From an uncultured Lachnospiraceae bacterium (GTDB taxonomy: Bacteria; Bacillota; Clostridia; TANB77; CAG-508), in contig CAYYBL010000001.1 in assembly GCA_964470175.1 (NCBI GenBank), positions 4,982 to 68,981 on the forward strand: a stretch of DNA of 64,000 bases, in the 5' to 3' direction. Positions within the stretch are counted from its first letter, which is position 1, and the number at the start of each line of letters is the position of its first letter. The notes under the pieces are model-generated. The model made no database searches and was not told the origin of the DNA. It saw only the letters and a program-made list of their open reading frames with translations. Made by a program: the position numbers and the translations under genes. This document shows positions 10,545 through 62,390 of the stretch, piece by piece.

Positions 10545-10617
10545 AGGTCTCCCCCATATTTTTCGTGACTTCATAGTAATATCCGAATTACATATGTTTC
10601 TTAATTTCTATAGGAAG

Positions 10618-12228: not shown

Positions 12229-15200
12229 TTATTTAGTTAATACTTTTTTCTTGATAATCACTACTCCAGCACCAACTATAACAAGTCCTGCAGCTATAAC
12301 TACTAGAGCTTGAGAAATTATTTTGCCTTCCTTATCAGTCAAGCCATTTGGTGGTGAAAATGTGATAAGTTCTGTACTACTTGTATCTCTTTCAGCAACA
12401 GATTGTTCAAATTCTCCATATTTTGGATTTGTGTTACCTTGTGTTATCGTAATATCTCTTCTTCCTACAGTATTTTCCATTTTTACAACCTCTGCTATAT
12501 TATCAAATGATAAATTATTTGCATCTTTACTTGAAGCAACTACCTTTGTTATAGTAATATCAAGTACAGTATAGTTTGCTGTCGTATCTCCAACTCCTTC
12601 TGCTGGCTCAGACATATTATATGTAGTAATTGTACCTTGTTCTAATGTATCACCAGTCATTGGCACTAATTGTTGTTCAAATAGAGCATTAGATAATTGA
12701 TCATAATTATCAATACCATTTTCATTTCTTACAACACTAAGTTCATCCACACTTAGAACAACATTATTTCCTGAATCAGAAATATACACTCTATCATCTT
12801 TATCAAGAAGTTTATTTGTAGCAACAATATCTTTTGATAATAATTGTTCTCCATTTAATCCGTTTCCAGCAAGTTCAAGTACTGATGTGTTTTTCCATGA
12901 ATGATCAACCCTTCTATTATTAGTTGTATCAAATACTGCATCATTGTCAACATAATCAACAATTTGACGTACTCTTGTTGTAACTATTCTTAAAGTTTCC
13001 TTAGTTTTATCATTATATTGTCCATCATAATAATAGCTTCCAAGATATTTTCCTTCTTTTCCACGAATATTATCTTTTCGTGCATCTGCTATAACATCAT
13101 AAAGCGTTTCTCCACTCTTAACATCATCTATAGCAGCTATCCTTTCTGTCGTATAATCTACTTCACCTGCATTTAGAGCTGTAAATCTATAGTTAATCGT
13201 GATCGTTGTACCTTGCAATATTTCATCATCAATATCTACAAATCTAAAGTTTTGAATACCGTTATTATACTTACCTTCATCTTCTCTTATTCTACCATTG
13301 TAGCTTTGATCTTTATCTTCTACTTTTTCGATAGCTTTCATTAATTCATCACCAACAGATCTATCTTTAACCAAAGTAGTATTTGCTATCAAATATTCTT
13401 CTGAATTTGGTAATTTAATTAAAACTTTAGCATCAGAATCTTTACTATCGCCTATTGTATATTCTGTACCAAACTCTGCATCAAATATTGTCTTACCATC
13501 ATTTGTCGTAATCTCGATATCTTTTATTTCTTTATCAAGAATAATATTATTCTTAGGTCTTTCTATTAAACCTGTATTTATGTATTTTACTTCTTCTTTC
13601 CTTTCAGACTCATCTCCATTATATACTGGACAGATACCAACCTTTCTTGTATATGTTGACATTGCATATCCATCATATAATTCACTATGATATCCATTTA
13701 CATAGTTTGCTTCATTGAACATTTCAGAAAGCTCATTTGTAATTGTAGTAGATTTTGCCATCCCTTCTAGTCTTTGTACCTCATCATCTATGGCATATGA
13801 TTTCTTGCTATTCTCTGCTGATTCACCCGGAATATTTACTACCACATTTTCTTTTTTGTCATTATATATATATCCATCCGTATCCTTGTTCATGAAAATT
13901 GTTGCTTTGTAATCTTGTCCATTATATACAGCTGGTGTTTCATTATTTGCATCTTTATCATAGTTTGCTGTAAGTACTTCTGTACTTATTTGATTTCCGC
14001 CGTCTCTTGACTTTGCAGCGTTGAACATTTCACCTTTTTTGTTTAATGCAGTAGGTGCACCTGTATTTTGATCAGTATCAGCAAGAGTTGATTTATCTAT
14101 ACCATACTCTGATTTAACAAAGTAATCTCCGACAGGAATTTTCTTAAAGTTATATTGTCCAACTTTAACAACAGCTGAATCATATGATTCTATAACTTTT
14201 CCATCTTTGTCTTTGTTTACTCTTGACGATTCTGTTGTACTATCAAATCCAACTACATCCTCTACTGTCATTCCACCAAAGCTATTTAGTCCAACATTTG
14301 TAGGCCACAAGAAATCATAATCATTTGTTCCATCACTAAATGTTTCGACAAGTTCCATTGTTAGTCCACCTATTAGTGCTTCGTCATTTTCATCATATAG
14401 ACCATTTCCAACTGATTTTCCTTCTTCTTTGCTATCTTCCCATGCTAGACCAGAAACCACTTTATTTTGATTTTCATCAATCTTTAACTCTAGTACTGGT
14501 GCTGCATAAGTATCGTCCTCATATAATGATCTAAAGTTGAAATCATGTATATTTAGATTTGAAGGAGCTGAATTTCCATCAATCTTACCTGCAGTGCCTG
14601 AATATTCTTTATTATTACTATTAAATGATCTACTATTGTAGTATGTTGAATAACTTGCAATTTCAACTATATTTGATTTTGTACCAGTTTTTATTGCATT
14701 TATTACTGACTCAACTGAACTCTTTTCTGTCTTATATGTTACGTATATATTTATAAAGTCTCCACTTGATAACTTAGCAACATCATCTCCACTTGTACTT
14801 GGATTTGGTGAATCTGGTAGGTTCACTCTATACTTATCATAATACTTACCATCTGATGACAATATATCTTTTTGTACAACATTTGCATTATTCCAAACAA
14901 GATCATCTTGTTTTACGTTACTAATACCTTTTGTTATATATGGTTTTTCAATAGAAATACTTCTATTTTCTTCTTTTCCATTAACCGTTTTTACATCTTG
15001 TGTGAAGCTTCTCTCAACAACCTCCAATGTACTATCACTATAATCATCAATACCATTTATTCTCACATCATATTCTGCTGAATTATTTACGATTTGAATC
15101 TTATATTTTAGATAAACTTGCATTTCAGAATTTTCAATATTTTCTCCCAAAATTTCTTTTATCTTATCATAATCACTACTCATCGAATATATTTCAGATC

Positions 15201-18200
15201 TATAATAATAATCTGATGAATAAAGTCCAATTGGAGCTAAAGTTCTTTCAACTTTAGTTTTATCAATCAAATCTGCCAATTTATTAAATTGGAAAAATTG
15301 AGCATTTTGTTTTGTAACAACTGTAGCAGAATCTAGTACTTTTACTACAGATACATCTACATCTGGCCTATTAATCAATCCTAAATTAATATGTTTACTA
15401 TAACCCAAATATTTATATGTTACTTTTACTCCATCAACTGTCATTTCTCTTGATGGACTATCAGCCCTCAAGTGAACTTGGTTTGATAAAGGATATGCCG
15501 CATGAGCTGACTCCATTCCTATATATGTAGTTGCAGTTACCTTATATTGATCATAAGTATAGCCATTATCATCTGTTTTTATAATAGATTTCAATGAATT
15601 ACTTGAATTATCATTCCTATTAGATGAATCCATATTTCTTGCTTCATATGTCAAATCATATCCACTAGCATTTCCAATTGTAATACCAGATTCATTTAAC
15701 ACTTCTTTTCCTTCAATAGTTTCAAATCTTTCATTTACTTCTTTTCTATTTTTATCAATTGCAACAGAATCATTTGCATATTTAGCAACCATATCTGGGT
15801 ATTCATTTATACTTGAATTGTTTAAATCTGATATGTACATATCTGATTTTTTCTGATATGGATTAGATACATCTCCAACTTTTGCACTTGCCAAATAAGT
15901 TGTAGGCTCATATTTTTGTCCATTATACAAAAAGTCTACTTTATATTTTTCGTAAGCAAGTTCATAAAGAGTAATACCTTCTGCTTTCCAACTACCATCT
16001 TTATCTGTATAAATTGGTTGTGTAATTTCTTCACCCATTTCATCTCTTAAATCAGCTGGGCTACCATCTGCTGAATTTTTGACATAAACTTCAACTTTTT
16101 CTACACCTTCTTCTCCACTATCTAATTTACCATTCTTTCCAGTACCATTTTTATCCCATGGTGTTTCATCTAACCAAACTGTTCCTGAAAGATTTACTGT
16201 AAGAATTAGTTTTTTGTATTTTGGAAGCTCATTTATAACCGTAATTTCAAGCGGATCTCCGAGTTTACTATCAACTAATGTCTGTCCATTATTTGAAATA
16301 CTTGTATTCTTCCATCCAATGTTTGCATCTTTCTTAGAAAGGTCTTCATATACTTCTACTTGTGGTGCTTCATTACCATACCATGTAATTTCATCTGATT
16401 CAAATACACCACAATAATCATCACCATCTAATGTAACCTTAAATGTAAGAGCATCTTTTTCATCTTTAGTGCTATTATATTCGTTGTCATAAAGTTTACC
16501 CTTATATTTAAATTTTGTACCGTATATTTTGTAAGTCACTTCAAATGCTAAATCACTAGGATCTCCAATTAATTTTCTCTCTGCAACAATTTGTTTTCTG
16601 ATCTTAAACTTACCTTTATGTTCTTCGCTTTTATTTATAGCTACTACTGTGATAGCTTTTGCAATTGGATCACTTTCTTTTGAAGCATCTTCTACTACTC
16701 CAGTTGCATTATCTGATATTTCAACTAATTGATATCCCTCTGGAATATTAATCTCTTCAACTTTATATGTTGGAGCATTTTCCCCACTTTTCCATTCAAT
16801 TTTTTTAGTCCAATCCTCATTAACTTTTACGATTGGATTATATACTTCGCTATGACCATCTGCATATGTAATAGTTACTTTAAAAGTAAATTCTTCATCA
16901 CCATCTATTTCACTGCCATTTTCTGCTAATTTTGATACTTTTAAATATCCAAATTTTGGAACTGAATCATTTGTTGCTGTCACTGTAGTAGTAGTGTTCA
17001 TAGTTAAACTTCCACCTGCATTTGTGATACTTCTCTGTTTTGCAATTACAGTTCCATCTTTTTTATCTTTAACAACAACATCACCATTATCATCTGTAGT
17101 AAGTGATGTACCATCAAGATTTACCTCTTCTACTTTATATGTAGGCTCTGTCATACCTTTTTTCCATGTAATATCTGATAAATAATACTCAAAGTTGTTT
17201 CCTTCTACTAGCCAAACATCATCAATTACCATATCTTCATTTACATATGACTCGCCATTATATTCAAATGTACCATTTATCGTTACTTTAAATCTGAATT
17301 TTTGATTCTTTAATGAATCTGAAGTAAGCTCTTTTACAATTTTCAAATTTCCCTTATCTGGTACTGGCTCATCTTTTATTTTATTATGACAATTACCAAC
17401 CTCGACAACTTTATCAACTTCCAATGTTCCTGTATACACATCTGAATCACTTCCATCAAACTTGACAAAATATGTTCCTTCAGGTACATCAACTTCTTTT
17501 ACTGTAAATACTTTATCATCGGTAATCGTAATATCTTTAATTGTCTTTTCCCAAGTATATGTATTTCCGATTCTATTTGTTTTATCAAGCGTAACAGTAT
17601 TCGTTCCCCCATTATATGTAACATCAAATGTAAATACATAACCATCTGCACGTTCTTTCAACTTTTCTTTTAGTTCATCTGAAAGAGTTTCATCTATATC
17701 AAGTGTTTTAATTATTTTAATACTTCCATTATCTGTACCCTTATTAACACATATTACTTTGGCAACAGGTTCATCCTTCAAAACATTTGCAGCATTTTCC
17801 ATTTTATGTTCCTTGCTCTCATCTGTTTCTGTTTCAGATAAATCTTGCTCTATAACTTCATATAGTGGAGCTGTCTTTAATGGATCCCATTCAAATTTCT
17901 TTGATTTCCATGAACCATTACTTGTTTTACTTGCTTGTATTGATACAGTGGCATTTTCACCTCCTTCAATACTTCCATTATTATCTAAATAATATGTTCC
18001 TGGTTCTTTCACTTCACCATCGTAACCAAATTCACTTGTTGCAGTTATTTTAACTGTAAACTTGAATGTCTTAGTTTCATCAATTTCATATGAAGGATCG
18101 ACTTTCTTAACAATCTCTAATGATGAATTTGGTATATCTATCTTATTAAAGCAATTATCAACTTCAACTACTGTATCTGCTTCTAATATTCCTTTATATT

Positions 18201-21200
18201 CATCTGGATTACTTCCATCAAACTTAACAAAATGCGTTCCAGCAGGTACGTCAATCTCTTTTACAGTAAAGTCTTTGTTTGACTCATTTATTTTAATGTG
18301 TTCAATTGTCTTTTCCCATGTATATGTATTTCCAACTCTATTTGCTTTATCAATTTCAACAGTATGTGTCTGTCCATTATATTTAACTTCAAATTTAAAC
18401 TTTAATTCATCAACACGTTTGTCTAAATATTTTTTCTGGAATTTAGAAAGTGTTGTTTCATCAATATCAAGAGATTTCCTTATTTTAATGTCACCATATC
18501 GTACTGTTGGTCCATTAGTACATATTACTCTAACAGCATCTCCTTGTATATCAACCAACGAGCCACTACCATTTTCAATTTCATACTCTTTGCCTTCATC
18601 AGTATCTGTATCAGGTAAATCTAACTCTGTTACTTCATAATCTGGAGATTTTACTTTTACACTCCATCTAAATAAACCAGACTTCCATACACCTATTTCT
18701 TTCTTGCTTGCCTCAATAGCTACATAAGTGTTATTATTTGCATCAGCTTTTTTAACTAAGCCTTTTACACTATCTAAATAGTATTCTCCTGCATCATATG
18801 GAGTGCCATTGTATTCAAATTTCTCACTTGCTGTTATTTTAACTTTAAAATGGAATGTATATATCTTTTCATCATCAACTTCATCAGCTTCATATGACTC
18901 AGCTACCTTCTTTGTAATTTCCAAATATCCTCTATGTGGAGCACCTATTTCATTTTCAAAGAAAATGTTTGTTGATTTTTTTAATGTTTCTCCTTCATCA
19001 TTTTCCTTTACAATTCCTTCAAGGATTGGTGTATCTACTTCATCTTCGCCTTCAATCCAAGCTCTTTTGAAGAAAACACCTTCACTTACTATCTTATTTA
19101 CTATGAATCCACCATCATCCATAAGCTCTTCTACTTTAAATTCAGGTGCAACTTCACCTTTTGAAATATCCCACTTAAAAACTATACCTTGTTCTTTAGA
19201 GTCCCACTGCCATGTCCATGTATCACCTTCTTTTGTTGGATAAACTTTAATTTCTTCATCGAAATATTTAACATCAGTTGGTTTTTCTATTTCATTACCA
19301 CTTGCATCTATTGCCTTTACTCTTTGTGTAACTGTTACATGGAAATTAAATGCTATTTTTTCAATGTCACTTTCGTAATCATCAGCACCTTGAAGAGTTT
19401 TTATTAAGTTTATTTTACCATATTTGTAAGTTCCATTTATTGTGTTATCAATAGTTATATCAAATGTGTTTGTGGTACTTGGCTTTAATCTACCACTTGA
19501 TCCTTCTGATGTATATGTTGGAATATTTAGACTATATCCATCAGGTAAAACTACTTTTGAAGTATCCTCACTTGCTTTATATTCTGGAGCTTTGTCAAAC
19601 TCGCACCACTCAATTTCTTTATCTAATACACATACATTTGAGCCAGGTAGATATCTTCCTTTTCCAGGATTTTCTGGATCTTCTTCAAGTTTTGGTGTTA
19701 TAACTATTCCTTTTTCATATTTTGCCTTATCCTCTTCTTTTACTGGATTACCATCTTCTCCAAGCTCAACATATCCATCTCTTGTAAGTCTGATATAGTG
19801 ATCTCCATATTTTAGATTTTCTCCATATGAAAATCTTCCTTTAATGTCAACATAGAAGTAATAATCTCTATTTCGCAATATTTCCTTTGATTCGTCTTTA
19901 TATACGCCATTTTCTATATCAAAATTATCAACAGAACCTAAAATCTTTTCCAACTTTATTTTAGTTGTTTCTGTATCAATTTTATTTATACATGTATTTG
20001 TTATTTCATTTAATACATTATCATTATTTCTTAAGCTACCAGAAACTTCTGTTTTTCCTGATTCACCATTAAAGCTAACAAAACTTGTTCCTTCTGGTAC
20101 CTTAATTTCCTTTATTTTATATGAATGATCTCTCTTATCAAGTTTATACCATGTATATCTATCAGACACCCACGTAATTTGATATTTAGTTCCATTCTTT
20201 TTGCCATCTCCACCATGAAGTACAACATCTTCCTCTTTATTATCAACCGTTACTTTAAATGTAAAGTCTAAGTCTTTAAGCTTACTTATAACAAAGTCTC
20301 TTGTAGTTTCATCTGCAAATTTAGATAAATCAATTTCCTTTATTAATCTAAGTTTCGCACCTTCTGATTCATCATACTCATTTTCAAAACTTGCACTTGA
20401 AATATTTGTCAAGTTTTTCTCATCAGGCTCTGGTTTAAAATCATTTCCTGTATCTGTTGTAGTTGTACCTATAAGTTCTCCAGATATGATATATCTACCA
20501 TCAGCTGTAAGTTTTGCATCAGAACTAAATCTTGTTTCTCCAGTTTCATCTTTTAATTCTTCTAATTCAAATTTTGGTGCATTTTTTGTATACCATATAA
20601 TTGGTATTTCTTTTCCATTTTCATCAACCATAACATAATGATATTTACCATCTGCTTTTATTGTTATTGGTTTATTCTCTGGATTTGTATATGGCGTATT
20701 TTCTGTATAAGGAACACCATTTATATAAAAATCTCCTGTAATCTTTACATTAAATTTAAATTCTTTATTTTTTATTTGTTCACTTAATTCACTGCGCGCA
20801 CCCTCATCTGCTTCGGGTTCTTTCATTGTTTTTTGAATTCTAAGATATCCATATTTCTTTTCAAGCTTTTGGTTTGTAATGCGGAAGGTGATTCCCTTAT
20901 TTGCCTGAAATTCACCTCTAATAACGAAATCGTCTCCCAAAGGTACTTCTACTTCATTACCATTAGCATCTAAAATATATGCCTTAATTAAACGATATTT
21001 GTCTGCTGATACAGTTTCAGCATCGAATACTTCAGTAATTTCATATGTAGGATTTTTAATTTTACTATCATCTGCTACGGCCTCATATGCCCAAGCAAAA
21101 AACTTTGATCTTGAAGTACGAGCTTTAGGATCTTTTCCAACTGTTACAACAACTGGTGGAAAATTCATATTTTCAAAGTTATTTCTATACACACTTTTAC

Positions 21201-22863
21201 TTGGATCATTTTCATCTATAGAATTTCTATATGCATCATCCTGCACTATACCTTTTACATTAAACTTAAATCTAGCTTCATCTAAATCATCGTTATCTAT
21301 CGTATTTCCATATTCATCAACAACTTTCTTTGTAATCTGAACTTGTGCAATTTTTATATTGAATTGTCTACGTAATGAATATATTTCCTTCCATCTAAAT
21401 GCATCTCCTGCTAAAGCTAATCTTTGTGAGTCAAGTGTACCACCATCAATAGTATCTACCGTAGCATGGGTACCTTGTGTATTATTGTCAGGGTTTGTTT
21501 CGTTATAATGATACACAACTGTTCTTGCTTTCTTCCCGTAATGTCCTTCAAGTTTTTGATATGTACCATCTGCATTAGTATATTCAAAATTTACATTAAA
21601 CTGTAAAATAGATCCTGATCTAGAAACTTTATCTGTTCCCATAATTAAATAGAAAGCTTGATTGCCCTTAGGTGCAATTCTATCTGTCTTAACAAATTCA
21701 TCATGTTCACTGTCATAAAGAACTATTTTGAAATCTTTTTTACGATCTTCTTTGTTACTAAACTCTAATACTAGTGTATTATCATTGTCTAAAACTAATT
21801 CTATACTAGTTATATTTGAAAACTCTGACTTATAATAATCTACTGCAAAAGGACCAACCAAGTATTCCTTCGTATCAGCATTAAATGATACACTTGGTTT
21901 TTTATAATTCTCTCTTCCATTATCTGCAGTATTATAAATATTTCCCTTAGTTACCCACTTTGGTTTAGTCAAATTAAATCCAGCCGTCTTGTATGGTATA
22001 TTTGGATCTCTTCTATATTCATTCCATTCCTCTGTTTTTTCACCTCCAGATAATCTGTTAGCGCTTCCATCTTTTGTAGATTCTGTAGCATGAATTATAT
22101 AATCTTCAAATCTAACTGCTTCTTCATAAAGATCATTTGATCCCATATCACTACCAGTATGTCCAGCAGGTGTCATCCACCATGCCTGTTGTTCTTCAGA
22201 ATAATATCCTTCTGTTGGTGTTTCACCATCTCTAAGTGCTGAAAGAACCCAAGCTTCCTGTGGTATACATCTTAATGAATCTTTTACTGTATATACTGAT
22301 TGAGTTTCTTCATATGAAAGTGTCGTACCATTTGGATAAGTAAAATCATCATCACCATCATAGTCCCATGCATCATAATCTTGAGCAGCAGGCGAATTAG
22401 GATCAAGTACATCATCATCATTTGTCTCATCAGCTCCTTCTGGAACATTTGAATAATCAACTGTAAATGATCCACCACTAGAAATATGTTGTCCTCTTTG
22501 ACAACAAAGTATTTCCGCATAATCTCTTAATTCAACAAAACCAATATTAAGACTATCTCCTTTGGCAGCCTTAAGACCGGGTTTATAGTGCTCAACATTT
22601 TTAGTTCCAACTAATACTGCATCCGATAATTTTCCAGCAGTTTCGGTTTTGGACGAAAGTGCTGAACCATGTTTATCAAATGCTGCTGTTTCTTCATCTT
22701 CATCTGAACCCCACTCACCAAAATCAATACTGTCCTCATAATCGTCCTCTGCTTTTGATATATTTGATAAGTTGATGTTTAATACTACCAATGATAAAAA
22801 GAACAAACTCATCATCAATAATACTTTTATTACTAAATTCTTCATTTTCATATCATTTCTCAT
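12229..22863 (-). CDS. Giant surface protein 1 (3,544 aa): signal peptide, thioester-domain-like head, about 12+ CnaB/SpaA-like stalk modules, SdrD-B-like and DUF11-like C-terminal region, TFSPPNG motif + TM + KKKVLTK tail
   Basis: ORF track 12229..22890. I prefer ATG 22863-22861 (MRNDMKMKNLVIKVLLMMSLFFLSLVV...SKA/EDD), which sits 1 nt after the upstream stop with GGGGGTG 6 nt upstream. Modules repeatedly start G-x-L-x-I-x-K, contain F-x-F-x-V and P-x-Y-x-V-x-E, and end [C/A]-x-N. The SdrD-B-like segment is LSGTVWLDETPWDKNGTGKNGKLDSGEEGVEKVEVYV. Confidence 0.9.
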   Translation of the reverse strand: MRNDMKMKNLVIKVLLMMSLFFLSLVVLNINLSNISKAEDDYEDSIDFGEWGSDEDEETAAFDKHGSALSSKTETAGKLSDAVLVGTKNVEHYKPGLKAAKGDSLNIGFVELRDYAEILCCQRGQHISSGGSFTVDYSNVPEGADETNDDDVLDPNSPAAQDYDAWDYDGDDDFTYPNGTTLSYEETQSVYTVKDSLRCIPQEAWVLSALRDGETPTEGYYSEEQQAWWMTPAGHTGSDMGSNDLYEEAVRFEDYIIHATESTKDGSANRLSGGEKTEEWNEYRRDPNIPYKTAGFNLTKPKWVTKGNIYNTADNGRENYKKPSVSFNADTKEYLVGPFAVDYYKSEFSNITSIELVLDNDNTLVLEFSNKEDRKKDFKIVLYDSEHDEFVKTDRIAPKGNQAFYLIMGTDKVSRSGSILQFNVNFEYTNADGTYQKLEGHYGKKARTVVYHYNETNPDNNTQGTHATVDTIDGGTLDSQRLALAGDAFRWKEIYSLRRQFNIKIAQVQITKKVVDEYGNTIDNDDLDEARFKFNVKGIVQDDAYRNSIDENDPSKSVYRNNFENMNFPPVVVTVGKDPKARTSRSKFFAWAYEAVADDSKIKNPTYEITEVFDAETVSADKYRLIKAYILDANGNEVEVPLGDDFVIRGEFQANKGITFRITNQKLEKKYGYLRIQKTMKEPEADEGARSELSEQIKNKEFKFNVKITGDFYINGVPYTENTPYTNPENKPITIKADGKYHYVMVDENGKEIPIIWYTKNAPKFELEELKDETGETRFSSDAKLTADGRYIISGELIGTTTTDTGNDFKPEPDEKNLTNISSASFENEYDESEGAKLRLIKEIDLSKFADETTRDFVISKLKDLDFTFKVTVDNKEEDVVLHGGDGKKNGTKYQITWVSDRYTWYKLDKRDHSYKIKEIKVPEGTSFVSFNGESGKTEVSGSLRNNDNVLNEITNTCINKIDTETTKIKLEKILGSVDNFDIENGVYKDESKEILRNRDYYFYVDIKGRFSYGENLKYGDHYIRLTRDGYVELGEDGNPVKEEDKAKYEKGIVITPKLEEDPENPGKGRYLPGSNVCVLDKEIEWCEFDKAPEYKASEDTSKVVLPDGYSLNIPTYTSEGSSGRLKPSTTNTFDITIDNTINGTYKYGKINLIKTLQGADDYESDIEKIAFNFHVTVTQRVKAIDASGNEIEKPTDVKYFDEEIKVYPTKEGDTWTWQWDSKEQGIVFKWDISKGEVAPEFKVEELMDDGGFIVNKIVSEGVFFKRAWIEGEDEVDTPILEGIVKENDEGETLKKSTNIFFENEIGAPHRGYLEITKKVAESYEADEVDDEKIYTFHFKVKITASEKFEYNGTPYDAGEYYLDSVKGLVKKADANNNTYVAIEASKKEIGVWKSGLFRWSVKVKSPDYEVTELDLPDTDTDEGKEYEIENGSGSLVDIQGDAVRVICTNGPTVRYGDIKIRKSLDIDETTLSKFQKKYLDKRVDELKFKFEVKYNGQTHTVEIDKANRVGNTYTWEKTIEHIKINESNKDFTVKEIDVPAGTHFVKFDGSNPDEYKGILEADTVVEVDNCFNKIDIPNSSLEIVKKVDPSYEIDETKTFKFTVKITATSEFGYDGEVKEPGTYYLDNNGSIEGGENATVSIQASKTSNGSWKSKKFEWDPLKTAPLYEVIEQDLSETETDESKEHKMENAANVLKDEPVAKVICVNKGTDNGSIKIIKTLDIDETLSDELKEKLKERADGYVFTFDVTYNGGTNTVTLDKTNRIGNTYTWEKTIKDITITDDKVFTVKEVDVPEGTYFVKFDGSDSDVYTGTLEVDKVVEVGNCHNKIKDEPVPDKGNLKIVKELTSDSLKNQKFRFKVTINGTFEYNGESYVNEDMVIDDVWLVEGNNFEYYLSDITWKKGMTEPTYKVEEVNLDGTSLTTDDNGDVVVKDKKDGTVIAKQRSITNAGGSLTMNTTTTVTATNDSVPKFGYLKVSKLAENGSEIDGDEEFTFKVTITYADGHSEVYNPIVKVNEDWTKKIEWKSGENAPTYKVEEINIPEGYQLVEISDNATGVVEDASKESDPIAKAITVVAINKSEEHKGKFKIRKQIVAERKLIGDPSDLAFEVTYKIYGTKFKYKGKLYDNEYNSTKDEKDALTFKVTLDGDDYCGVFESDEITWYGNEAPQVEVYEDLSKKDANIGWKNTSISNNGQTLVDSKLGDPLEITVINELPKYKKLILTVNLSGTVWLDETPWDKNGTGKNGKLDSGEEGVEKVEVYVKNSADGSPADLRDEMGEEITQPIYTDKDGSWKAEGITLYELAYEKYKVDFLYNGQKYEPTTYLASAKVGDVSNPYQKKSDMYISDLNNSSINEYPDMVAKYANDSVAIDKNRKEVNERFETIEGKEVLNESGITIGNASGYDLTYEARNMDSSNRNDNSSNSLKSIIKTDDNGYTYDQYKVTATTYIGMESAHAAYPLSNQVHLRADSPSREMTVDGVKVTYKYLGYSKHINLGLINRPDVDVSVVKVLDSATVVTKQNAQFFQFNKLADLIDKTKVERTLAPIGLYSSDYYYRSEIYSMSSDYDKIKEILGENIENSEMQVYLKYKIQIVNNSAEYDVRINGIDDYSDSTLEVVERSFTQDVKTVNGKEENRSISIEKPYITKGISNVKQDDLVWNNANVVQKDILSSDGKYYDKYRVNLPDSPNPSTSGDDVAKLSSGDFINIYVTYKTEKSSVESVINAIKTGTKSNIVEIASYSTYYNSRSFNSNNKEYSGTAGKIDGNSAPSNLNIHDFNFRSLYEDDTYAAPVLELKIDENQNKVVSGLAWEDSKEEGKSVGNGLYDENDEALIGGLTMELVETFSDGTNDYDFLWPTNVGLNSFGGMTVEDVVGFDSTTESSRVNKDKDGKVIESYDSAVVKVGQYNFKKIPVGDYFVKSEYGIDKSTLADTDQNTGAPTALNKKGEMFNAAKSRDGGNQISTEVLTANYDKDANNETPAVYNGQDYKATIFMNKDTDGYIYNDKKENVVVNIPGESAENSKKSYAIDDEVQRLEGMAKSTTITNELSEMFNEANYVNGYHSELYDGYAMSTYTRKVGICPVYNGDESERKEEVKYINTGLIERPKNNIILDKEIKDIEITTNDGKTIFDAEFGTEYTIGDSKDSDAKVLIKLPNSEEYLIANTTLVKDRSVGDELMKAIEKVEDKDQSYNGRIREDEGKYNNGIQNFRFVDIDDEILQGTTITINYRFTALNAGEVDYTTERIAAIDDVKSGETLYDVIADARKDNIRGKEGKYLGSYYYDGQYNDKTKETLRIVTTRVRQIVDYVDNDAVFDTTNNRRVDHSWKNTSVLELAGNGLNGEQLLSKDIVATNKLLDKDDRVYISDSGNNVVLSVDELSVVRNENGIDNYDQLSNALFEQQLVPMTGDTLEQGTITTYNMSEPAEGVGDTTANYTVLDITITKVVASSKDANNLSFDNIAEVVKMENTVGRRDITITQGNTNPKYGEFEQSVAERDTSSTELITFSPPNGLTDKEGKIISQALVVIAAGLVIVGAGVVIIKKKVLTK
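17375..18935 (-). repeat. Tandem duplication of a two-domain unit (A-B-A'-B', about 260 aa per A-B unit) inside giant 1
   Basis: RGYLEITKKVAESYEADEVDDEKIYTFHFKVKITASEKFEYNG... parallels SSLEIVKKVDPSYEIDETKTFKFTVKITATSEFGYDG.... YGDIKIRKSLDIDETTLSKF...RVGNTYTWEKTIEHIKI...FTVKEIDVPAGTHFVKFDGS parallels NGSIKIIKTLDIDETLSDEL...RIGNTYTWEKTIKDITI...FTVKEVDVPEGTYFVKFDGS. The similarity is also visible in the DNA, by eye. Confidence 0.65.
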
Positions 22864-22864
22864 A

Positions 22865-25800
22865 TTAAACACCCCCTTCCTCTTCTTCAACTTTTCTTTT
22901 ATTCATCACAATCTTTCTGTTTATCACAATTACTGCGAGAACCACCAGCATTGATGTAGTAATAATCATCGATGTATAAATAAGTGTCTCACCTGTCCTT
23001 ATAAGAATAATTATATCTGAACTACTTAAGTCATTTTCTCTTTGTGCTTTATTTGCTGGAGTAGAATTATAATCATCTACACCATATATATTATAGTCTT
23101 CATAAATCTCTGCTTGATTGTTTACAAGTCCTGTATTTTCACCTGTCATATTCTTTTCTAGCACTAACTTAATTACAGTTGATTCTCCCGGTGCTAGGCT
23201 TAGATTTTCTCTAGATGCGTTAAATATAGTATCATTTGAGCCTGTATACCATCCGTTATTTAATGCTAGACTTGAATTAAATTCCATATCTTGTGGTTTA
23301 TAATCTACTATTTTCTTAACAAATCCAGGAATTTCTCCTTTATTTGTAATCTTTATTTCATATTCAACAAGTACTTTTGCACCATCAATATTTTTAGCAG
23401 GTATATCTTCTTTTACAAGTTTTTCACCATTATAATTATTTGTAGAAGTACCCTTTGATGATTGTACTGTAACCTTTGAAATGCTCATGTCTAATTCTAA
23501 GTCAAATTTATCTGCAAGTACAAGTCCTAAATCTATATTTGATACGCTTGAATTGTCTATAACTATTGCATCAGATACAGCTGCTGTTCTTGATGTTCCT
23601 TCTTGTGTAACTTTTTCTGCAATTGCATCAGAATTTGTTGAATCTTGTACTCCATCCTTTTTGTATGTAGTAACACCATATTTTATAGTATCATAATCAT
23701 ATATTACAAAGTATTTTCCGTTTTCTACACCATTTAATATATACATTCCACTACTGTCTGTTGTTACCTTTTTCAATATTTTTCCAGTTTCGCTTTCAAC
23801 AAGACTCACTCTTACATCTCCTACCATTGGAGACTCATTGGTATCTCTCATACCATCTTTATCTGAATCAAGCCATACATATCCTGATATTTTATATGTT
23901 TTATTCACTTTATCAGTATCACTTGATGAAGAAGGTCTTGCAGAATTTGAACTAGATTCCTCTACCTTTTCTTCTCCTTCGCCTTCAGCTAAAACATTTT
24001 TTAATGTGAATGTTAATGAATTTGAAGTAATTTCATCTACATTTTCAGCAGAAACCGTAGCAAAGTTTGTAACAGTTTTTTCTTCTGAAGTATCTCTAAT
24101 GCTAGCATATGTATCAACTATAACCTTAAGTTCCTCTCCTGCTTTTATATTTTCACATACATAGACCTTATTACTTTTTGAATCATTTTCTTTATCCACT
24201 GAACCAACTGTATATTTTACGCCCTTTACTTGAAGTTCATCTGGGAATATATCTTTAAATGCTACTTTTGGTACTGTAACTTTGCTATCATTCTTAATAG
24301 TAAATATAAATCTTATGTTTTCCCCTTCATTAATTGTTGAAGAAACATCTGTATCCGTTGTTTGAGATATTGTAAGTACTGAGTCGCTTATATTTACCTT
24401 ACTTACTTCAGACTCATATACATCAATACCATCTGCCCAAGCTTTTGCACTCGTACCAACCGTATCATATGTCATATTGTTTGAAATATGATCAACCTTA
24501 AATTCATATTCACAACAAACATGCTCATTTGGTTTTAATTCATTTAAATTCCAAGTAATTGTTCTTGTAGCTTCATCATAGCTTCCTTCACTTATTTCTG
24601 TATAATTCTCACCAACATACATACATAGATGTGATGAAACATACTTAAACTCTATAGGAAGCTCCTTAGTAACATTTAAATTTTTAAGAGTTTTATCTGT
24701 AAGATTTTTAACTTGTACTGTATGACCTACTTGATCACCTATTCTATACGTTTTAAAAACCTGACCTCTATCATATTCATTTATCTTTAATTCTGCATTA
24801 TTTACCTTTGTTTTTTCACTTGAAGCATTTATTTCTTTTCCTAAATCTTTTGCGATAGCCTTTGCTGTAGTCTCTACATAACTATCACCAGATGATTTTT
24901 TCATAACTGAAAGATTTAGTTCTGCAGATAATTCTTTTCCAACTTCCAATTCTTCAGACCTTATAACGATCTTGTTATTTTCTAAACTTAAAGAAGCATC
25001 TTCTTTATTTAATGTTGATGTCTCTTCACTAAATAATGTACTTCTTGGTACAGGTATCTCTATATATACCTGTTCTGCATTCTGTTTTCCTACATTTTTA
25101 AGCACAACACTTACTGGAAGATTTTCATACTCTTTTACTTCCTCTTTATTGTTCTTAAGAGAAAGAGTAAGCTCTGGTCCATTTCCTGTAGTAAGCATTG
25201 CTAGGTCTGCGAAGCTTATTTCTGCTTTCTTTAACTCATCTTCATTTGATGTATAATATGTAACAAATTCACCTGCTAAATATTCATGATGAGCTAAATC
25301 TTCAGGAATCTCAAATGTATACTTAAATTTAAGAGTTTCTCCCACAGTAAGCTTAAAGTCATCATTTTCTGGAACAATCATGTATGACTTCATTTCTGAT
25401 AAATCTGAAGGGTTTTCTTCCCAACCATTTTCTCCATTTTGTAAATCTCTTGTTGCTAACGCATTTTTTGAATAATAAACTTTAAAACTTGATGAACTTT
25501 CTTCTGCTAAAACTACTCCTGATAACATTTTTGTATCTATAGTGGTTCTTTCTACGACTTTCTCTCCTGTAATTATATCTACCAAATCTTTTTGAGGTAT
25601 TCTTCCTAGAATACTTACATTTGATATGTCGCTATTTTCATTATTCATTACATATAATATCATTTCTGCATTTTTGCTGCCTGAATGAACCTCTATAAAA
25701 TCAGTCATCTTTCCTTGATTTACAGAAGCTATATATCCATTTTCTTTATATCCCGTTATAGCATTCACGCTTACTACACCAGAAGGAGCAGAATATCTAA

Positions 25801-27943
25801 TTTCTACATTTTCTGTTTCTTCATAATTTGTAGCTTGTTCATTAGAAACTTTACATGAAATCTCAGCTTTCTTCACTGGTGTAAGTCTATTTACAGTAAT
25901 ATTTGCTACTATAACAATGTTTGTACCATTGGTAATAACAGAACTATTTAATCCTTTTTGCATACCAGATGTACTAACTCTTATAGTTCTTGTATCAACA
26001 ACTTCTACATTTTCAAGTGTAAGTCCTTCATCATAAGCAATACTTGAGTTTAGTATTTCTATACTTTCAACTTCACTTGGTAAAACAATATCAAATACTG
26101 AATTTCCATATATATCTGAAAACTCAGAACTATTATTTAATTCTATTTTAAACTCTACATCTTCTGTCTTTGATACTGTAGAGAAAGAATCTTTATTTAC
26201 AACAAGATTTACTTTTGTTTTTGTATCTACCATACTAATAGTATTTTCTACGTTACTTACTATTTGCTCAGCATCTACATATGTATATTTTGCAACAAGT
26301 TCTGATGCAATTTTAATACTTTGAACTTCTTGCATTTTTGATCTATCAATAGAAGAGTCCGATATAGCTCTTTCTACATTTATTACTAAATTTCCTTGTG
26401 TTATAGGTTTTGATACTTCATATGTAAGTACTTTTCTGTTTGAATCAGGCATAACAACTTCGATATTATTATTTTCATCCTCATTCATTTTTAGAGATGC
26501 AATTACTATTCCTGCATCATATATATTTATATAGCCTTCTTTTCCTAATATATTTTCAAAATTTTCTTTTGAAACAGAAACCTTCTTTGTATATACATCA
26601 GACATGCTTACTTGCTCTCCTGATTTTAATACATACATGGCTTCTTTATCATTTATTTTTAGAGAATCTATAATGTTGTTATTTGAGATATTTAAAATTT
26701 CTTTTGAATTTAAAATTGTTTCAACTTTTTCGCTATTTAAGTAATTTGAATAAATACCATTTTTTGAAACTTCATTTTTATCATTTTCGATATTTAATGA
26801 TACTAAACTACCTACTTCGCTCTCAAAAGAATTTTTATATGAATTAGATACAGTTACCTGATTTGCATCAGAATCCTTTTCTCCACAATATGTAGAAACT
26901 ACCATTGCTATATCCGATACTACTTCTTTAGCATCTATATTTTCTAATCCTTCATAAACATATGTTACAAGATATTCATCCACTCCAGGAATGTTATAGT
27001 ATCTTTCTTCTTTAACGATTTTTTCTTGATCAACCAAATATTCATCATCATATTCATTAAATTCAACCATTGATTTCTCATTTTTTACAGAGATATCAAC
27101 GATACCATCTCTATATGAATAATTAGATTCATTGAATTTGATAGTGTCAGCATTCCCACCGTTTGTATTTTCCAATTTATTTGCATCAACTATAACCTTA
27201 CTTGGTTTTTGTCCACTTATAACTGGTGCATCAATCCTAATAGCTGTTTCTCTAACAGGTAAAGTCTTTTCATCAGTTGTACCATCTACTTTTACAAGAC
27301 TTTGTAGGATAATACCTCCACCATAATTTATGAATTTTTGTATTGAAGATTCAAGACTAACCTTTCTTTGATTCGTCCAAGAAACACTTAATGTATCTTC
27401 ATATACAACCTCTTTCTCATTACCATCTTTATTTACATATACACCTGTAAGCCTTACCTTAGCATCACTTGCAATATTTTTATCATTTACATACTTTTCA
27501 TACTTGTAAGTGAATGGCACTGAGATAATTGTCTTTACATCTGAATCAATTTGTTTTAAAGTAATCTCATTTTTTGAAACACCTTGAATCAAAGAATTTT
27601 GTCCTATGTTTTCACCTAAAACAAAGTTTAATCCCTTTCCTTCCTCACTCTCTAGGATACTAATTTGAGCGTTTTTTAAATACCCGCTTTCCTTCACCTC
27701 AAGTGACAAATCAATGGCTAAATCTTTATTATTTACATCACTAATAACCGAAGCAGTCTTAGTACCTGATCCGGTTTCAAAATATGCACTAAATTCTACA
27801 TTCTCATTTGTTTTTGAACTTGAGAAAACTTCTGTAATGATTTCTGAAGCAAAAGTTTCTCCAACAAATAAGAAGTTGGCAGAAGTTAATGTAAATATTA
27901 GAAGAATAGCGAGTAACTTTGTCCTGATATTGCTTGATTTCAT
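22865..27943 (-). CDS. Partner protein 1 (1,692 aa): signal peptide, long beta-rich N-terminal region, DUF11-like repeats, SdrD-B-like domain, DUF11-like domain with D-x-x-S-x-P-x-N...(E/N)D motif, LIRTGE + TM + basic tail
   Basis: ATG 27943-27941 follows AGGAGGAG (27951-27958). N-terminus is MKSSNIRTKLLAILLIFTLTSANFLFVGETFAS. DUF11-like signatures include GDQVGHTVQVKNLTDKTLKNLNVTKELPIEFKYVSS and EGENIRFIFTIKNDSKVTVPKVAFKDIFPDELQV. SdrD-B-like segment: ISGYVWLDSDKDGMRDTNESPMVGDVRVSLVESETGK...SSGMYILNGVENGKYFVIYDYD. C-terminus: ...DIIILIRTGETLIYTSMIITTSMLVVLAVIVINRKIVMNKRKVEEEEGGV. Confidence 0.9.
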   Translation of the reverse strand: MKSSNIRTKLLAILLIFTLTSANFLFVGETFASEIITEVFSSSKTNENVEFSAYFETGSGTKTASVISDVNNKDLAIDLSLEVKESGYLKNAQISILESEEGKGLNFVLGENIGQNSLIQGVSKNEITLKQIDSDVKTIISVPFTYKYEKYVNDKNIASDAKVRLTGVYVNKDGNEKEVVYEDTLSVSWTNQRKVSLESSIQKFINYGGGIILQSLVKVDGTTDEKTLPVRETAIRIDAPVISGQKPSKVIVDANKLENTNGGNADTIKFNESNYSYRDGIVDISVKNEKSMVEFNEYDDEYLVDQEKIVKEERYYNIPGVDEYLVTYVYEGLENIDAKEVVSDIAMVVSTYCGEKDSDANQVTVSNSYKNSFESEVGSLVSLNIENDKNEVSKNGIYSNYLNSEKVETILNSKEILNISNNNIIDSLKINDKEAMYVLKSGEQVSMSDVYTKKVSVSKENFENILGKEGYINIYDAGIVIASLKMNEDENNNIEVVMPDSNRKVLTYEVSKPITQGNLVINVERAISDSSIDRSKMQEVQSIKIASELVAKYTYVDAEQIVSNVENTISMVDTKTKVNLVVNKDSFSTVSKTEDVEFKIELNNSSEFSDIYGNSVFDIVLPSEVESIEILNSSIAYDEGLTLENVEVVDTRTIRVSTSGMQKGLNSSVITNGTNIVIVANITVNRLTPVKKAEISCKVSNEQATNYEETENVEIRYSAPSGVVSVNAITGYKENGYIASVNQGKMTDFIEVHSGSKNAEMILYVMNNENSDISNVSILGRIPQKDLVDIITGEKVVERTTIDTKMLSGVVLAEESSSSFKVYYSKNALATRDLQNGENGWEENPSDLSEMKSYMIVPENDDFKLTVGETLKFKYTFEIPEDLAHHEYLAGEFVTYYTSNEDELKKAEISFADLAMLTTGNGPELTLSLKNNKEEVKEYENLPVSVVLKNVGKQNAEQVYIEIPVPRSTLFSEETSTLNKEDASLSLENNKIVIRSEELEVGKELSAELNLSVMKKSSGDSYVETTAKAIAKDLGKEINASSEKTKVNNAELKINEYDRGQVFKTYRIGDQVGHTVQVKNLTDKTLKNLNVTKELPIEFKYVSSHLCMYVGENYTEISEGSYDEATRTITWNLNELKPNEHVCCEYEFKVDHISNNMTYDTVGTSAKAWADGIDVYESEVSKVNISDSVLTISQTTDTDVSSTINEGENIRFIFTIKNDSKVTVPKVAFKDIFPDELQVKGVKYTVGSVDKENDSKSNKVYVCENIKAGEELKVIVDTYASIRDTSEEKTVTNFATVSAENVDEITSNSLTFTLKNVLAEGEGEEKVEESSSNSARPSSSSDTDKVNKTYKISGYVWLDSDKDGMRDTNESPMVGDVRVSLVESETGKILKKVTTDSSGMYILNGVENGKYFVIYDYDTIKYGVTTYKKDGVQDSTNSDAIAEKVTQEGTSRTAAVSDAIVIDNSSVSNIDLGLVLADKFDLELDMSISKVTVQSSKGTSTNNYNGEKLVKEDIPAKNIDGAKVLVEYEIKITNKGEIPGFVKKIVDYKPQDMEFNSSLALNNGWYTGSNDTIFNASRENLSLAPGESTVIKLVLEKNMTGENTGLVNNQAEIYEDYNIYGVDDYNSTPANKAQRENDLSSSDIIILIRTGETLIYTSMIITTSMLVVLAVIVINRKIVMNKRKVEEEEGGV

Positions 27944-28429: not shown

Positions 28430-31400
28430 TTATTTTATAAACTTTGAATCTAATACTTTTTTCCTAATAAGTATGATTCCGCCAGCTATTATAACTATTG
28501 ATACTGAAGCTATAGCTAGTACTTGAGTAAGTAAAATATTTGACTTATCTATACCAGTAGGTGGTGTAAATGTAACTATTTCTGTGCTTGATGCTCCTCT
28601 TTTCTTTAATGATTCAAAGAATTCACCATATTTAGGTGTAATAACACCTGTGATATATGTCATATCTCTTCTTCCTACTGTATTTTCGTATTTAACAATC
28701 TCAGCTAATGCATCAAACGCTAAACTGTTTGATTCATCTGAAGATAATGTAGATATTTTTTTCGTTGTAATAATATCAATTGTACCTGATGTCTTGACTT
28801 TTTCATCAGTATTTGGATTCTTTCCAATGATGATATCTTCTGTACCTCCATTTAAGTCTTTATCCAAATACAACATGTTTTCATGGAAAATATTATTGCC
28901 ATACGCTCTAATAGGAACCAATCTAAATTCAAATGCTCCATTTGTAACTGCACCTTTATCATCTGACCATGGTCTATAATTATCATTTAGCTGATCTACT
29001 GAAAGAGCTAGGTTATTTTGAGTATCAGATGTATATTGTCTATTGTTTTTATCAATAATCGTTTTTCCATTTGCTACAGTCTTTCCAATCAACCTCTTTT
29101 CATAATTTCCATTACCATTAAGTTCTTCGATACTCGTATTTTTCCAATATCTATTGTAGTTGCTATTTTCTGATGTATCAAATACGGCATCTGTATCAAC
29201 GTAATCTAATACTTGTCTTACCCTTGTTGTAACAATTGCCTGACCAGCAATACTTCCAGTATAATAATAGTTTCCAATTACTGAGCCAAATTTTAAGTCC
29301 TTCTTTCCATCTACCCTACTTCCACTTATGCTATATATACTATTGTTATCATTTACAGTTTTTGCAGCATTTATTATTGTTGCATATTCTCCAATTGGAC
29401 TTTTTGAGCCAGAAATTTCACTAATTGCCTTTGTAGTATAATCTACCTCGCCCACATTTATCGCTGTAATTTTGTACCCAATAGCTATATATAAACCTTG
29501 TAATAAATCTTCATCGATGTTTATAAATTTAAAGTTTTGAATTCCTTTATTCTTTTCTTTTAGTTGTTCTAATTTATTTTCAGTTTTTCCTATTGCCTGC
29601 ATCAACTCTATTCCAGTTGACTTGTTTTTGTTTAATTCCACAATAACTACTAGATAATTATCAGAATCTAGTTTTGCGACAACAGGAATATCATCACTCG
29701 GTTTGCCTTTCACTTTTTTGTAATTTATATCGTATTCTGCATTAAACAAGACTTTATTATCATTTGTAATAAGTTTTATTGAACTTACTTCATCATCAAG
29801 AACGATCTTGTTTTCAGGTCTTTCTATTAAACCAATATTAACATTTTTTACATTTTGCTTGTTTGCTATAGTTCCCTTTTTCTTCTTTGATGTTGTGTAT
29901 AATCCATCTATCTCATCATCTTTATAGTTTAATATCTTAATTTTAGGTGTATCAGCATACATATCATACTTCTCATGAAGAACTCCATATGCTCCTGAGA
30001 CGTCATTTGCCTCAGACATATCTCCACCATTCTTATTTGTAATGGTTTCAGAGTTTGCCATTACCTCTGCTCTTCTATACTCGTTATCTCTTACATATGA
30101 TTTATTAGCATTTGATCCAGTTTCTGTATTACCTATAAACTCTTCTGTTAAACTTCCACCATACAATGTAGCCTTGAAGTCTTGGCCATTATATATAGTA
30201 GTCGTCTTACCGTATTTTATTTCATCGTAATTTGCAACATTTGAACCTGTTTTTAAATCATATTTTTTATATGGAGTATAAGTATATGTAACATATTTAC
30301 CAAGAGCTAAATCATAGGTTGTCTTTGTAGATGTATTATTTTCAAGTTTTTCCTTCGTATTATATGCTGCTGGTTCTCCAGAAATATCTCTCGTATTTTG
30401 TTGACTATTTTTGTCATTTCCATATCTTGCTCTAACTACATAATTTCCTGAAGGTATATTTTCAAATCGATATGTTCCTACTTCTTGTGTTTCAAGTGAA
30501 GAAACCACTCCTGCAACATTTCCATCATCACCAAGTTTATCTCCAACTTTTCTTTCTATCTTTGTCCTTGCTGTCTCTACAGTACTTCTAAATCCAGTAA
30601 GCTCTTCAAAGGTTTTTCCTCCAAGTGAAGCTAGATTTGTATTTGTATCCCACAAATAATCAAATTCTACACTTTCAGTTTTACTCTTCTTTAGCTGAAC
30701 TTTTTCTACAAGTTCTGTAGTAAGACCTCCTATTACTGCTTCATTATCATTTTTATCATTGTTATACACACCATCTCCAACAGAATCGTCATCTATCTTC
30801 TTGTCTTCAAATGCCAATCCAGATATTGTTTTTTCTGTAGATTCGTTATCTAGATACATATCAAGCACAGCTTTATATGTATCATTTTCGAATCTTGTAT
30901 AGGTATCAAATGATCCAATATTTACATTTGAAGGTGCTGAATTTTTGTCTATCTTTCCGTTTATTTTCCTATTTTTATATGTAGAATAACTATTGATTTC
31001 CACTATATTGTCTTGTTTTCCAAGTCTTATTGCATCTCTTACGCCATCACTATTACCTTTATCAACCTTGTATGTAATAGAATATGTAACATTTTTTCCA
31101 ATATCTATTTCACCTGGATTCTTTATTACATATGTTCTCTTATTATATGTCGTTCCATTTGATGAAATAACGTCTACAGGAGCTGATACAGACGCTGTAT
31201 TTTTATTTAATGAGTTATAAGTTTCAGATGCTTTGTCAAATATCTTAGTCTCTTCTGTTTTTTTATTTTCTATTTTGGTTGTTCCATCACTATCATCAAG
31301 TATTTTGTATATATCTTTTGTAACAGGTATAAGTGAATTACTTGAATAATCATCAATTGCATTTATTTTAACTTTTGAATCAGTTGAATTATTAGTAAGA

Positions 31401-46402: not shown

Positions 46403-46403
46403 A

Positions 46404-62387: not shown

Positions 62388-62390
62388 TTT

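Follow-up and report, generated by a model that had tools for sequence, protein, structure and literature searches.

We analysed a window of 64,000 nucleotides from an uncultured Lachnospiraceae bacterium (GTDB lineage Bacteria; Bacillota; Clostridia; TANB77; CAG-508; GenBank assembly GCA_964470175.1, contig CAYYBL010000001.1, positions 4,982 to 68,981 of the forward strand). The window lies on contig C1 of this genome, here called G000, and encodes three giant proteins, B1, B2 and B3, whose C termini carry an xPP[T/N]G motif followed by a spacer, a hydrophobic helix and a basic tail. Our favoured reading, to which we assign a probability of roughly 55%, is that this arrangement is a sortase sorting-signal module of a family-restricted group of giants (the B proteins), with a sortase of one type, termed C11-type below, as the favoured agent. 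Under this reading the giant would be exported by Sec, the helix and basic tail would retain its C terminus in the membrane, and a membrane sortase would then cut after motif position 4 and transfer the giant to peptidoglycan or to another protein. We favour a sortase signal because the tails have the tripartite geometry of one, because the motif is invariant while the spacer varies, and because the tails are homologous to those of a partner protein with an invariant T-G; a precedent for xPPTG signals, the presence of sortases in all genomes of the family and the recurrent adjacency of the giants' genes to one sortase point the same way.

Anatomy of the giants' C termini

The giants end in SPPNG (B1), TPPTG (B2) and MPPTG (B3), each followed by a hydrophobic stretch and a tail containing lysine or arginine. 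The three C termini quoted in an initial annotation of this DNA proved exact, and its ranges (12232-12366, 28433-28580 and 52185-52350) cover the last residues before the stop codons at 12229, 28430 and 52182. All coordinates were re-checked by script. In B1, translation of the minus strand places SPPNG at 12343..12357 and the basic tail KKKVLTK at 12232-12252, on either side of the hydrophobic helix IISQALVVIAAGLVIVGAGVVII (12253..12321, minus strand), which AlphaFold2 models as a helix with a predicted local distance difference test score (pLDDT) of ~90. TPPTG of B2 occupies 28553-28567, with its transmembrane segment and tail at 28433-28552, and MPPTG of B3 occupies 52320-52334. The B3 tail (52185-52319) is atypical and looks degenerate, with a Glu within the hydrophobic stretch and a weakly basic end, KVGYLDKYANKDDTKF, that has no K/R cluster. 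Translation thus confirmed the motif, helix and basic tail, and the layout is that of a sorting signal, as had been proposed.

Across 146 related tails, identified by the profile search described below, the motif Gly lies 29-52 residues from the C terminus (median 33.5), and 145 of the 146 have a basic cluster. Structure predictions for the tail had mean pLDDTs of 63 (130 residues, 34 sequences) and 58 (220 residues, 47 sequences), the helix alone being confident.

Conservation and distribution of the motif

Of 201 genomes sampled from the same GTDB family, 159 matched a profile built from the three tails; among the 169 genomes of high quality 131 matched, and a match was present in 46 of the 50 genera. 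Searches at the level of family and class were samples of larger groups. All 32 tails from the fetched loci have PPxG; at position 4, 24 of them have T, six F, one Y and one N. Once B2 and B3 are included, the two prolines and the glycine are invariant in 34/34 aligned family tails and the spacer is variable. When 1.84 billion cluster representatives were searched with a tail profile, 2,031 clusters matched at E<=1e-3, of which 1,068 were at E<=1e-10. PPxG falls within the last 70 residues in 146 of the best 150 of the 2,031 cluster representatives, the remaining four having TLPTG, TNPFG, RPSEG and TKPYG. Judged by these alignments, conservation of PPxG is far above chance. The motif is conserved in orthologues, and its failure there had been named at the outset as grounds for abandoning a sorting signal.

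The commonest pentapeptides among the 146 are TPPTG (62) and LPPFG (56), and motif positions 1 and 4 are coupled. A further 20 paralogue tails all retain the position-3 Pro and the Gly, and add TKPYG, TKPWG, TKPLG, LPPLG, TAPTG and APPTG to the variants seen. Two more B members, both ending in LSPPTG, are encoded on contigs C27 and C74 of G000. Giants of this family range from 1,200 to 6,000 residues.

The B tail was absent from 293 genomes of 75 other families in the same class and present in 6 of 7 sampled within the family; among the genomes sampled it is restricted to one bacterial family. A related-locus search of genome contigs gave two loci, both in metagenome-assembled genomes of uncultured Clostridia. 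A direct homologue search with the tail gave a single match and was superseded by the profile search.

Homology between the tails of giants and partners

Upstream of each giant lies a separate gene for a partner protein, A, of about 1,700 residues. The A tails carry x[IV][K/R/S]TG at the position aligned to the B motif. Profile-profile alignment of 34 B tails with 7 A tails gave a probability of 98.2% over 113 columns and placed PPTG of B exactly onto x-x-T-G of A; on this alignment, the two kinds of tail are homologous. A-type tails occur in 200/201 family genomes, and T-G is kept in 30/30 A-tail loci.

The initial annotation had drawn attention to a conserved flank ahead of the motif, (S/A)(T/S)E(L/I)(I/V)TF, and took it to suggest recognition by a dedicated enzyme. 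The flank holds within the genus and relaxes family-wide to [TA]E.[VI].[IT]. Moreover, S(T/S)E(L/I)(I/V)TF of B aligns with S(S/A)D(I/V)II of A, the last strand region of a DUF11-like terminal domain. Because it aligns with the end of the partner's DUF11-like domain, we infer that the flank more probably reflects a conserved fold than recognition by an enzyme.

The folded-domain homology reaches the motif with no linker between them. This suits a different explanation, in which the tail would be an uncleaved type-I membrane anchor, tethering the giant permanently, and PPxG either a conserved juxtamembrane turn that closes the final beta-sandwich domain or the place where the partner protein makes contact. 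The modelling of the hydrophobic stretch as a confident helix is likewise consistent with an anchor of this kind, which, however, leaves the homology to the partner's invariant T-G unexplained. We regard uncleaved anchoring as possible but doubtful, and return to it below with the residues found at position 4.

Relation to known sorting signals

A sortase signal in the giants can be set against several known ones. The tails share with canonical LPXTG signals (TIGR01167, class A sortases) the tripartite form, an equal distance to the C terminus and the presence of sortases in all family genomes. They differ in having Pro fixed at X and in requiring neither L at position 1 nor T at position 4. 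TIGR01167 gives no score on any A or B tail and passes one LPNTG protein of G000. The sole model scoring B1 is NF033846 (Rumino_NPXTG), whose 12-14.5 bits fall short of its cut-off of 23.5 and come from the helix only. That model describes a curated, lineage-restricted LPXTG variant in gut Firmicutes, of which the giants' tail is not a member.

The nearest precedent that we find by sequence is the signal of Streptococcus pyogenes pilus proteins. The class B sortase Spy0129 (SrtC1/SrtC2) is reported to accept EVPTG and VPPTG, with QVPTG or VVPTG in other strains (PMC3019223, PMC7900414), and its consensus across strains is given as (E/Q/V)(V/P)PTG (PMC3019223). The x-P-P-T-G core of the giants matches VPPTG and shares its conserved Pro at position 3, while NVPTG and TLPTG of relatives fit x-V/x-P-T-G. 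In both systems the motif comes straight after a folded domain. The family's variants fit this shape better than LPXTG because the conserved Pro is the one before position 4. There are, however, clear differences. Where the S. pyogenes consensus opens with E, Q or V, the tails here have T, S, M or L; TPPTG and MPPTG agree at positions 2-5, whereas SPPNG departs at position 4; and about 44% of relatives have an aromatic residue or Leu in place of Thr. The proteins, at 1,200-6,000 residues, are not pilin-sized. No class B sortase is co-located with the giants, and in several motif-bearing relatives none is detectable. A1 and A2 lack the pilin motif [YFV]PK[NDGS], an absence that says little, the S. 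pyogenes acceptor itself being non-canonical. By analogy, the giants' signal would most likely be a version of x(P/V)PTG that is peculiar to their lineage.

The initial annotation had instead seen the closest likeness in the Clostridioides difficile SrtB signal, (S/P)PXTG, which is reported to be cleaved between T and G (PMC4155245). The giants share with it an LPXTG-like form, Pro at position 2, a small or polar position 1 and a host among the Clostridia. The strict pattern [SP]-P-x-T-G fits none of the three window tails, however: in SPPNG the T is missing, and TPPTG and MPPTG begin with neither S nor P. Nor is the class of enzyme common to the giants' family as a whole. The S. pyogenes consensus is the closer of the two. 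Our literature search found no paper that describes TPPTG, LPPFG, SPPTG or MPPTG as a motif for sorting in bacteria, and nothing related for LPPTG with sortase.

Sortases of the family and the candidate enzyme

G000 (1.71 Mb in 150 contigs, 29% guanine plus cytosine, 96.9% complete) has nine PF04203 sortase homologues, three of them class B. All nine lie on contigs other than C1, in agreement with the annotation's statement that the window holds no sortase. The three class B open reading frames (ORFs), on contigs C9, C55 and C3, exceed the TIGR03064 cut-off. PF04203 sortases are found in 201/201 family genomes. Some of those in G000 adjoin small substrates of their own, on C42 an LPEVG protein and on C37 an LLYTG protein. 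The SrtB on C3 (C3:26022-26846) adjoins a 713-residue protein ending in SPSTGD, a helix and a basic tail (C3:26022-29355), and by sequence the two form a C. difficile-like SrtB/substrate pair. Four more G000 proteins end in [TV]Px[TS]GD[NK], and all five look like SrtB clients.

A further sortase homologue of 424 residues (G000:C12:19246-20520) has SIQTGAD in place of the TLxTC motif, Gly replacing the catalytic Cys. Two paralogous genes beside it share its N-terminal domain.

One of the three SrtB enzymes might handle the giants. The class is represented three times above its cut-off, one member adjoins the SPSTGD protein, and class B enzymes read both the xPPTG and the (S/P)PXTG signals described in the sources cited above. 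Nonetheless, the five G000 proteins with [STV]Px[TS]GD ends suit SrtB better than the giants do, and in the six genomes checked, G000 and five relatives, the surroundings of the A/B pairs hold no SrtB. None of five further, small relatives reaches the TIGR03064 cut-off, and two of them (G075 and G103) have no match at all. These further five include G037, whose giant ends in LMPPTG, and G075, whose giant ends in NVPTG. Class B therefore cannot be the general enzyme for the giants, and we consider its service to those of G000 improbable.

The minimal genomes of these small relatives retain just two types of sortase, here termed C54-type and C11-type. The C54-type occurs in 201/201 family genomes, often in tandem copies, and the C11-type in 193/201 at E<=1e-35, mostly as a single copy. 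Both score below every NCBIfam sortase class cut-off. At E<=1e-25 each is found in 7/7 family genomes and in 1/292 outside the family. Gene order separates the two. In G014 and G054 (both A-B-sortase) and in G018 (ksgA-B-sortase), the gene immediately downstream of a B gene, in the same orientation, is a C11-type sortase; in G008 it follows one ORF later. This adjacency, in at least four genomes, was found by eye among the matches listed (150 B-tail and 150 C11-type rows). Comparing the listed C54-type matches with the B-tail rows in the same way showed no C54-type gene beside a B gene. No sortase was found beside the A/B pairs of the genus relatives or of G020 that were examined; the nearby G020 sortase belongs to a SpaA/thioester-domain (TED) pilin-like gene, and housekeeping genes lie between it and the A/B pair. 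In G000 the C11-type gene adjoins nrdD, ~5 kb from a gene for a 1,317-residue protein with an A-type tail (QISTG). The annotation had raised the matter of which sortase class accompanies the motif; class B is undetectable in several motif-bearing relatives, and the sortase found beside a giant's gene, or one ORF away, in at least four genomes is C11-type. We conclude from these comparisons that the best candidate for the giants is most likely the family's single-copy, unclassified C11-type sortase and not a class B enzyme.

The most conserved core of the motif is P-[T/F/Y/W/L]-G rather than T-G, the curated sortase-signal models do not match it, and the tail is limited to one bacterial family. 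These features would also fit a new, non-sortase system, in which another membrane protease or transpeptidase reads P-x-G in the manner of the CTERM signals of exosortase, archaeosortase or rhombosortase. Against this, the exosortase model PF09721 has no match in the 96.9%-complete G000, the neighbourhoods examined gave no candidate enzyme, and a sortase was the only processing enzyme found beside B genes. We think such a system very unlikely.

Is the motif a cleavage site?

A number of observations weigh against a sortase signal, the main one being that position 4, the residue to be acylated, is often not Thr. Known natural sortase signals have Thr at this position, with Ser, Ala or Asn as rare alternatives, and a part in catalysis has been proposed for the Thr. 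To our knowledge, Phe, Tyr, Trp or Leu occurs there in no known sortase signal. Position 4 of the 146 PPxG clusters is T in 81, F in 57, Y in 6, S in 1 and Q in 1, and is Asn in B1 itself. Phe, Tyr, Trp or Leu occupies it in about 44% of clusters, P and G still being invariant, and the T/N that the annotation took as a feature of the motif does not extend across the family. Tails of the T-class and of the hydrophobic class occur together in G019, G095, G120, G008 and G033, each of which has one C11-type sortase.

The remaining points concern context. No low-complexity, wall-spanning segment lies ahead of the motif, and no NCBIfam sorting-signal model reaches its cut-off on the four B-type and four A-type tails scanned. 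Phylogenetic profiling cannot separate the C11-type from the C54-type, because sortases are present in all 201 genomes and both core types are near-universal and equally family-restricted. In most genomes, sortase and B genes are distant or on different contigs. In G000 a one-base frame change breaks the C11-type gene (C11:8048-8834) into ORFs of 175 and 102 residues; the gene is intact in 7/7 same-genus genomes, which makes an assembly error as likely as real loss in G000.

Several of these points suit the uncleaved anchor. Invariant P and G around a position 4 that is so often aromatic or Leu is what would be expected of a structural motif rather than of a Thr-Gly scissile bond. Giant adhesins of this kind exist: Ebh of Staphylococcus aureus is a giant Gram-positive adhesin with an uncleaved C-terminal membrane anchor. 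Ebh-like adhesins share with the giants their size and a C-terminal helix with a charged tail, whereas we know of no invariant pentapeptide ahead of the helix in them. Some motif-bearing C. difficile proteins are described as escaping processing by sortase (PMC5569036), so that a motif alone is no proof of anchoring. Uncleaved anchoring nevertheless leaves unexplained the sharp TPPTG and LPPFG classes with their coupled positions 1 and 4, as well as the sortase gene directly downstream in three genomes and one ORF off in a fourth. Moreover, the tail geometry equals that of the canonical LPxTG proteins of G000.

If the giants do carry a sortase signal, the variation at position 4 could be reconciled with it in either of two ways. 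The family's sortase may tolerate or prefer a hydrophobic residue at this position, or the LPPFG class may depend on another sortase, for example one of the tandem C54-type copies. A third resolution is that the motif may be no cleavage site, the giants staying tethered in the membrane. A more elaborate scheme would make TPPTG and LPPFG two separately recognised natural sortase specificities, one cutting after Phe, which would be unprecedented. In that scheme sortases would also join A and B into a two-protein surface fibre, B being linked through xPPxG to a lysine of A, and A through x[IV]KTG to the wall. We hold this scheme to be unlikely.

The analysis shows directly how the tails are built and conserved, that those of A and B are homologous, that the B tail is confined to one family among the genomes sampled, which sortases are encoded and where one adjoins B genes; every link between an enzyme and its substrate we infer.

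Gene organization of the window

The window contains six large minus-strand genes, which form three A-B pairs. Giant B1 (12229..22863) has 3,544 residues plus the stop, with an N-terminal signal-peptide-like leader. Its partner A1 (22865..27943; 1,692 residues) has DUF11 and SdrD_B domains and ends in LIRTG (22991-23005), a transmembrane segment and a basic tail. Giant B2 (28430..46402; 5,990 residues plus the stop) is paired with A2 (46404..51785; 1,793 residues), which has SdrD_B and DUF11 domains and ends in LVKTG (46515-46529), a transmembrane segment and a tail. Giant B3 (52182..62387) has 3,401 residues plus the stop. The C-terminal part of A3 (62391..64000), with DUF11 and SdrD_B domains, ends in TISTG (62520-62534), a transmembrane segment and a tail, and A3 continues past the window end.

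From the stop of A to the ATG of B the distance is 1 nucleotide in A1/B1 and A2/B2 and 3 nucleotides in A3/B3. The junctions (22863-22867, 46402-46406 and 62387-62393) read TAAnATG, and the final stretch of A contains a GGAGG-like site. The true starts of the giants are the ATGs at 22863, 46402 and 62387. A mechanical ORF list gave lengths of 3,553, 6,011 and 3,401 residues, the longer ORFs being artefacts of upstream in-frame start codons. We read each B gene as co-transcribed with its upstream A and, judging by the stop/start spacing and the GGAGG-like site, probably coupled to it in translation. We considered a programmed frameshift or read-through fusing A and B, and rejected it. Every junction has a ribosome-binding site, an ATG and a signal-peptide-like leader, and these are therefore A-B gene pairs rather than frameshifted single genes. 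The signal-peptide-like N termini of B1-B3 and of A1-A2, with a K/R-rich start, a hydrophobic core and a small-residue site, were assessed by eye without a predictor.

No Pfam domain was found in the giants at E<=0.01, nor did a Pfam TED model match them even at E<=10. B1 (residues 115-240; ~22150-22520) and B2 (residues 80-200; ~45800-46160) have in common an N-terminal motif, ILC[C/R]Q[R/K]G, and a later one that reads QQAWW in B1 and AMAWW in B2. We take these to resemble the Cys and Gln motifs of bacterial thioester domains. For the first 2,000 residues of B1, the nearest clusters in a language-model search were SpaA/TED adhesins, at a score of 0.89, below the reliable range.

Past the window end, A3 shows up as two ORFs, of 928 and 975 residues, that overlap (G000:C1:67372-73039), a split that reflects either a frame change or an assembly error. 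At the other end of the window, a fourth giant ORF of a different kind (3-10574, minus strand) runs on to the start of contig C1, with more than 5,196 residues in the contig. It contains 18 DUF285 repeats (E 3.3e-237), DUF6273 and an InlB-B-repeat-like stretch, and its C terminus falls outside the contig.

Implications

Should the tails prove uncleaved, PPxG would be a conserved juxtamembrane motif on membrane-tethered giants, useful for annotation and otherwise ordinary. If the giants are processed by a sortase, the C11-type is singled out as the one enzyme to test, and the LPPFG class would provide the first sortase signal in nature whose scissile position is aromatic. Such a signal would bear on sortase mechanism, in which a role for the substrate Thr has been proposed, and on orthogonal sortase tools for protein ligation. 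The hosts are widespread, small-genome gut Clostridia that devote 3-5% of a 1.7-Mb genome to A-B pairs. In these bacteria, sortase processing of the giants would mean that the group's largest proteins are displayed by an uncurated anchoring system specific to the family.

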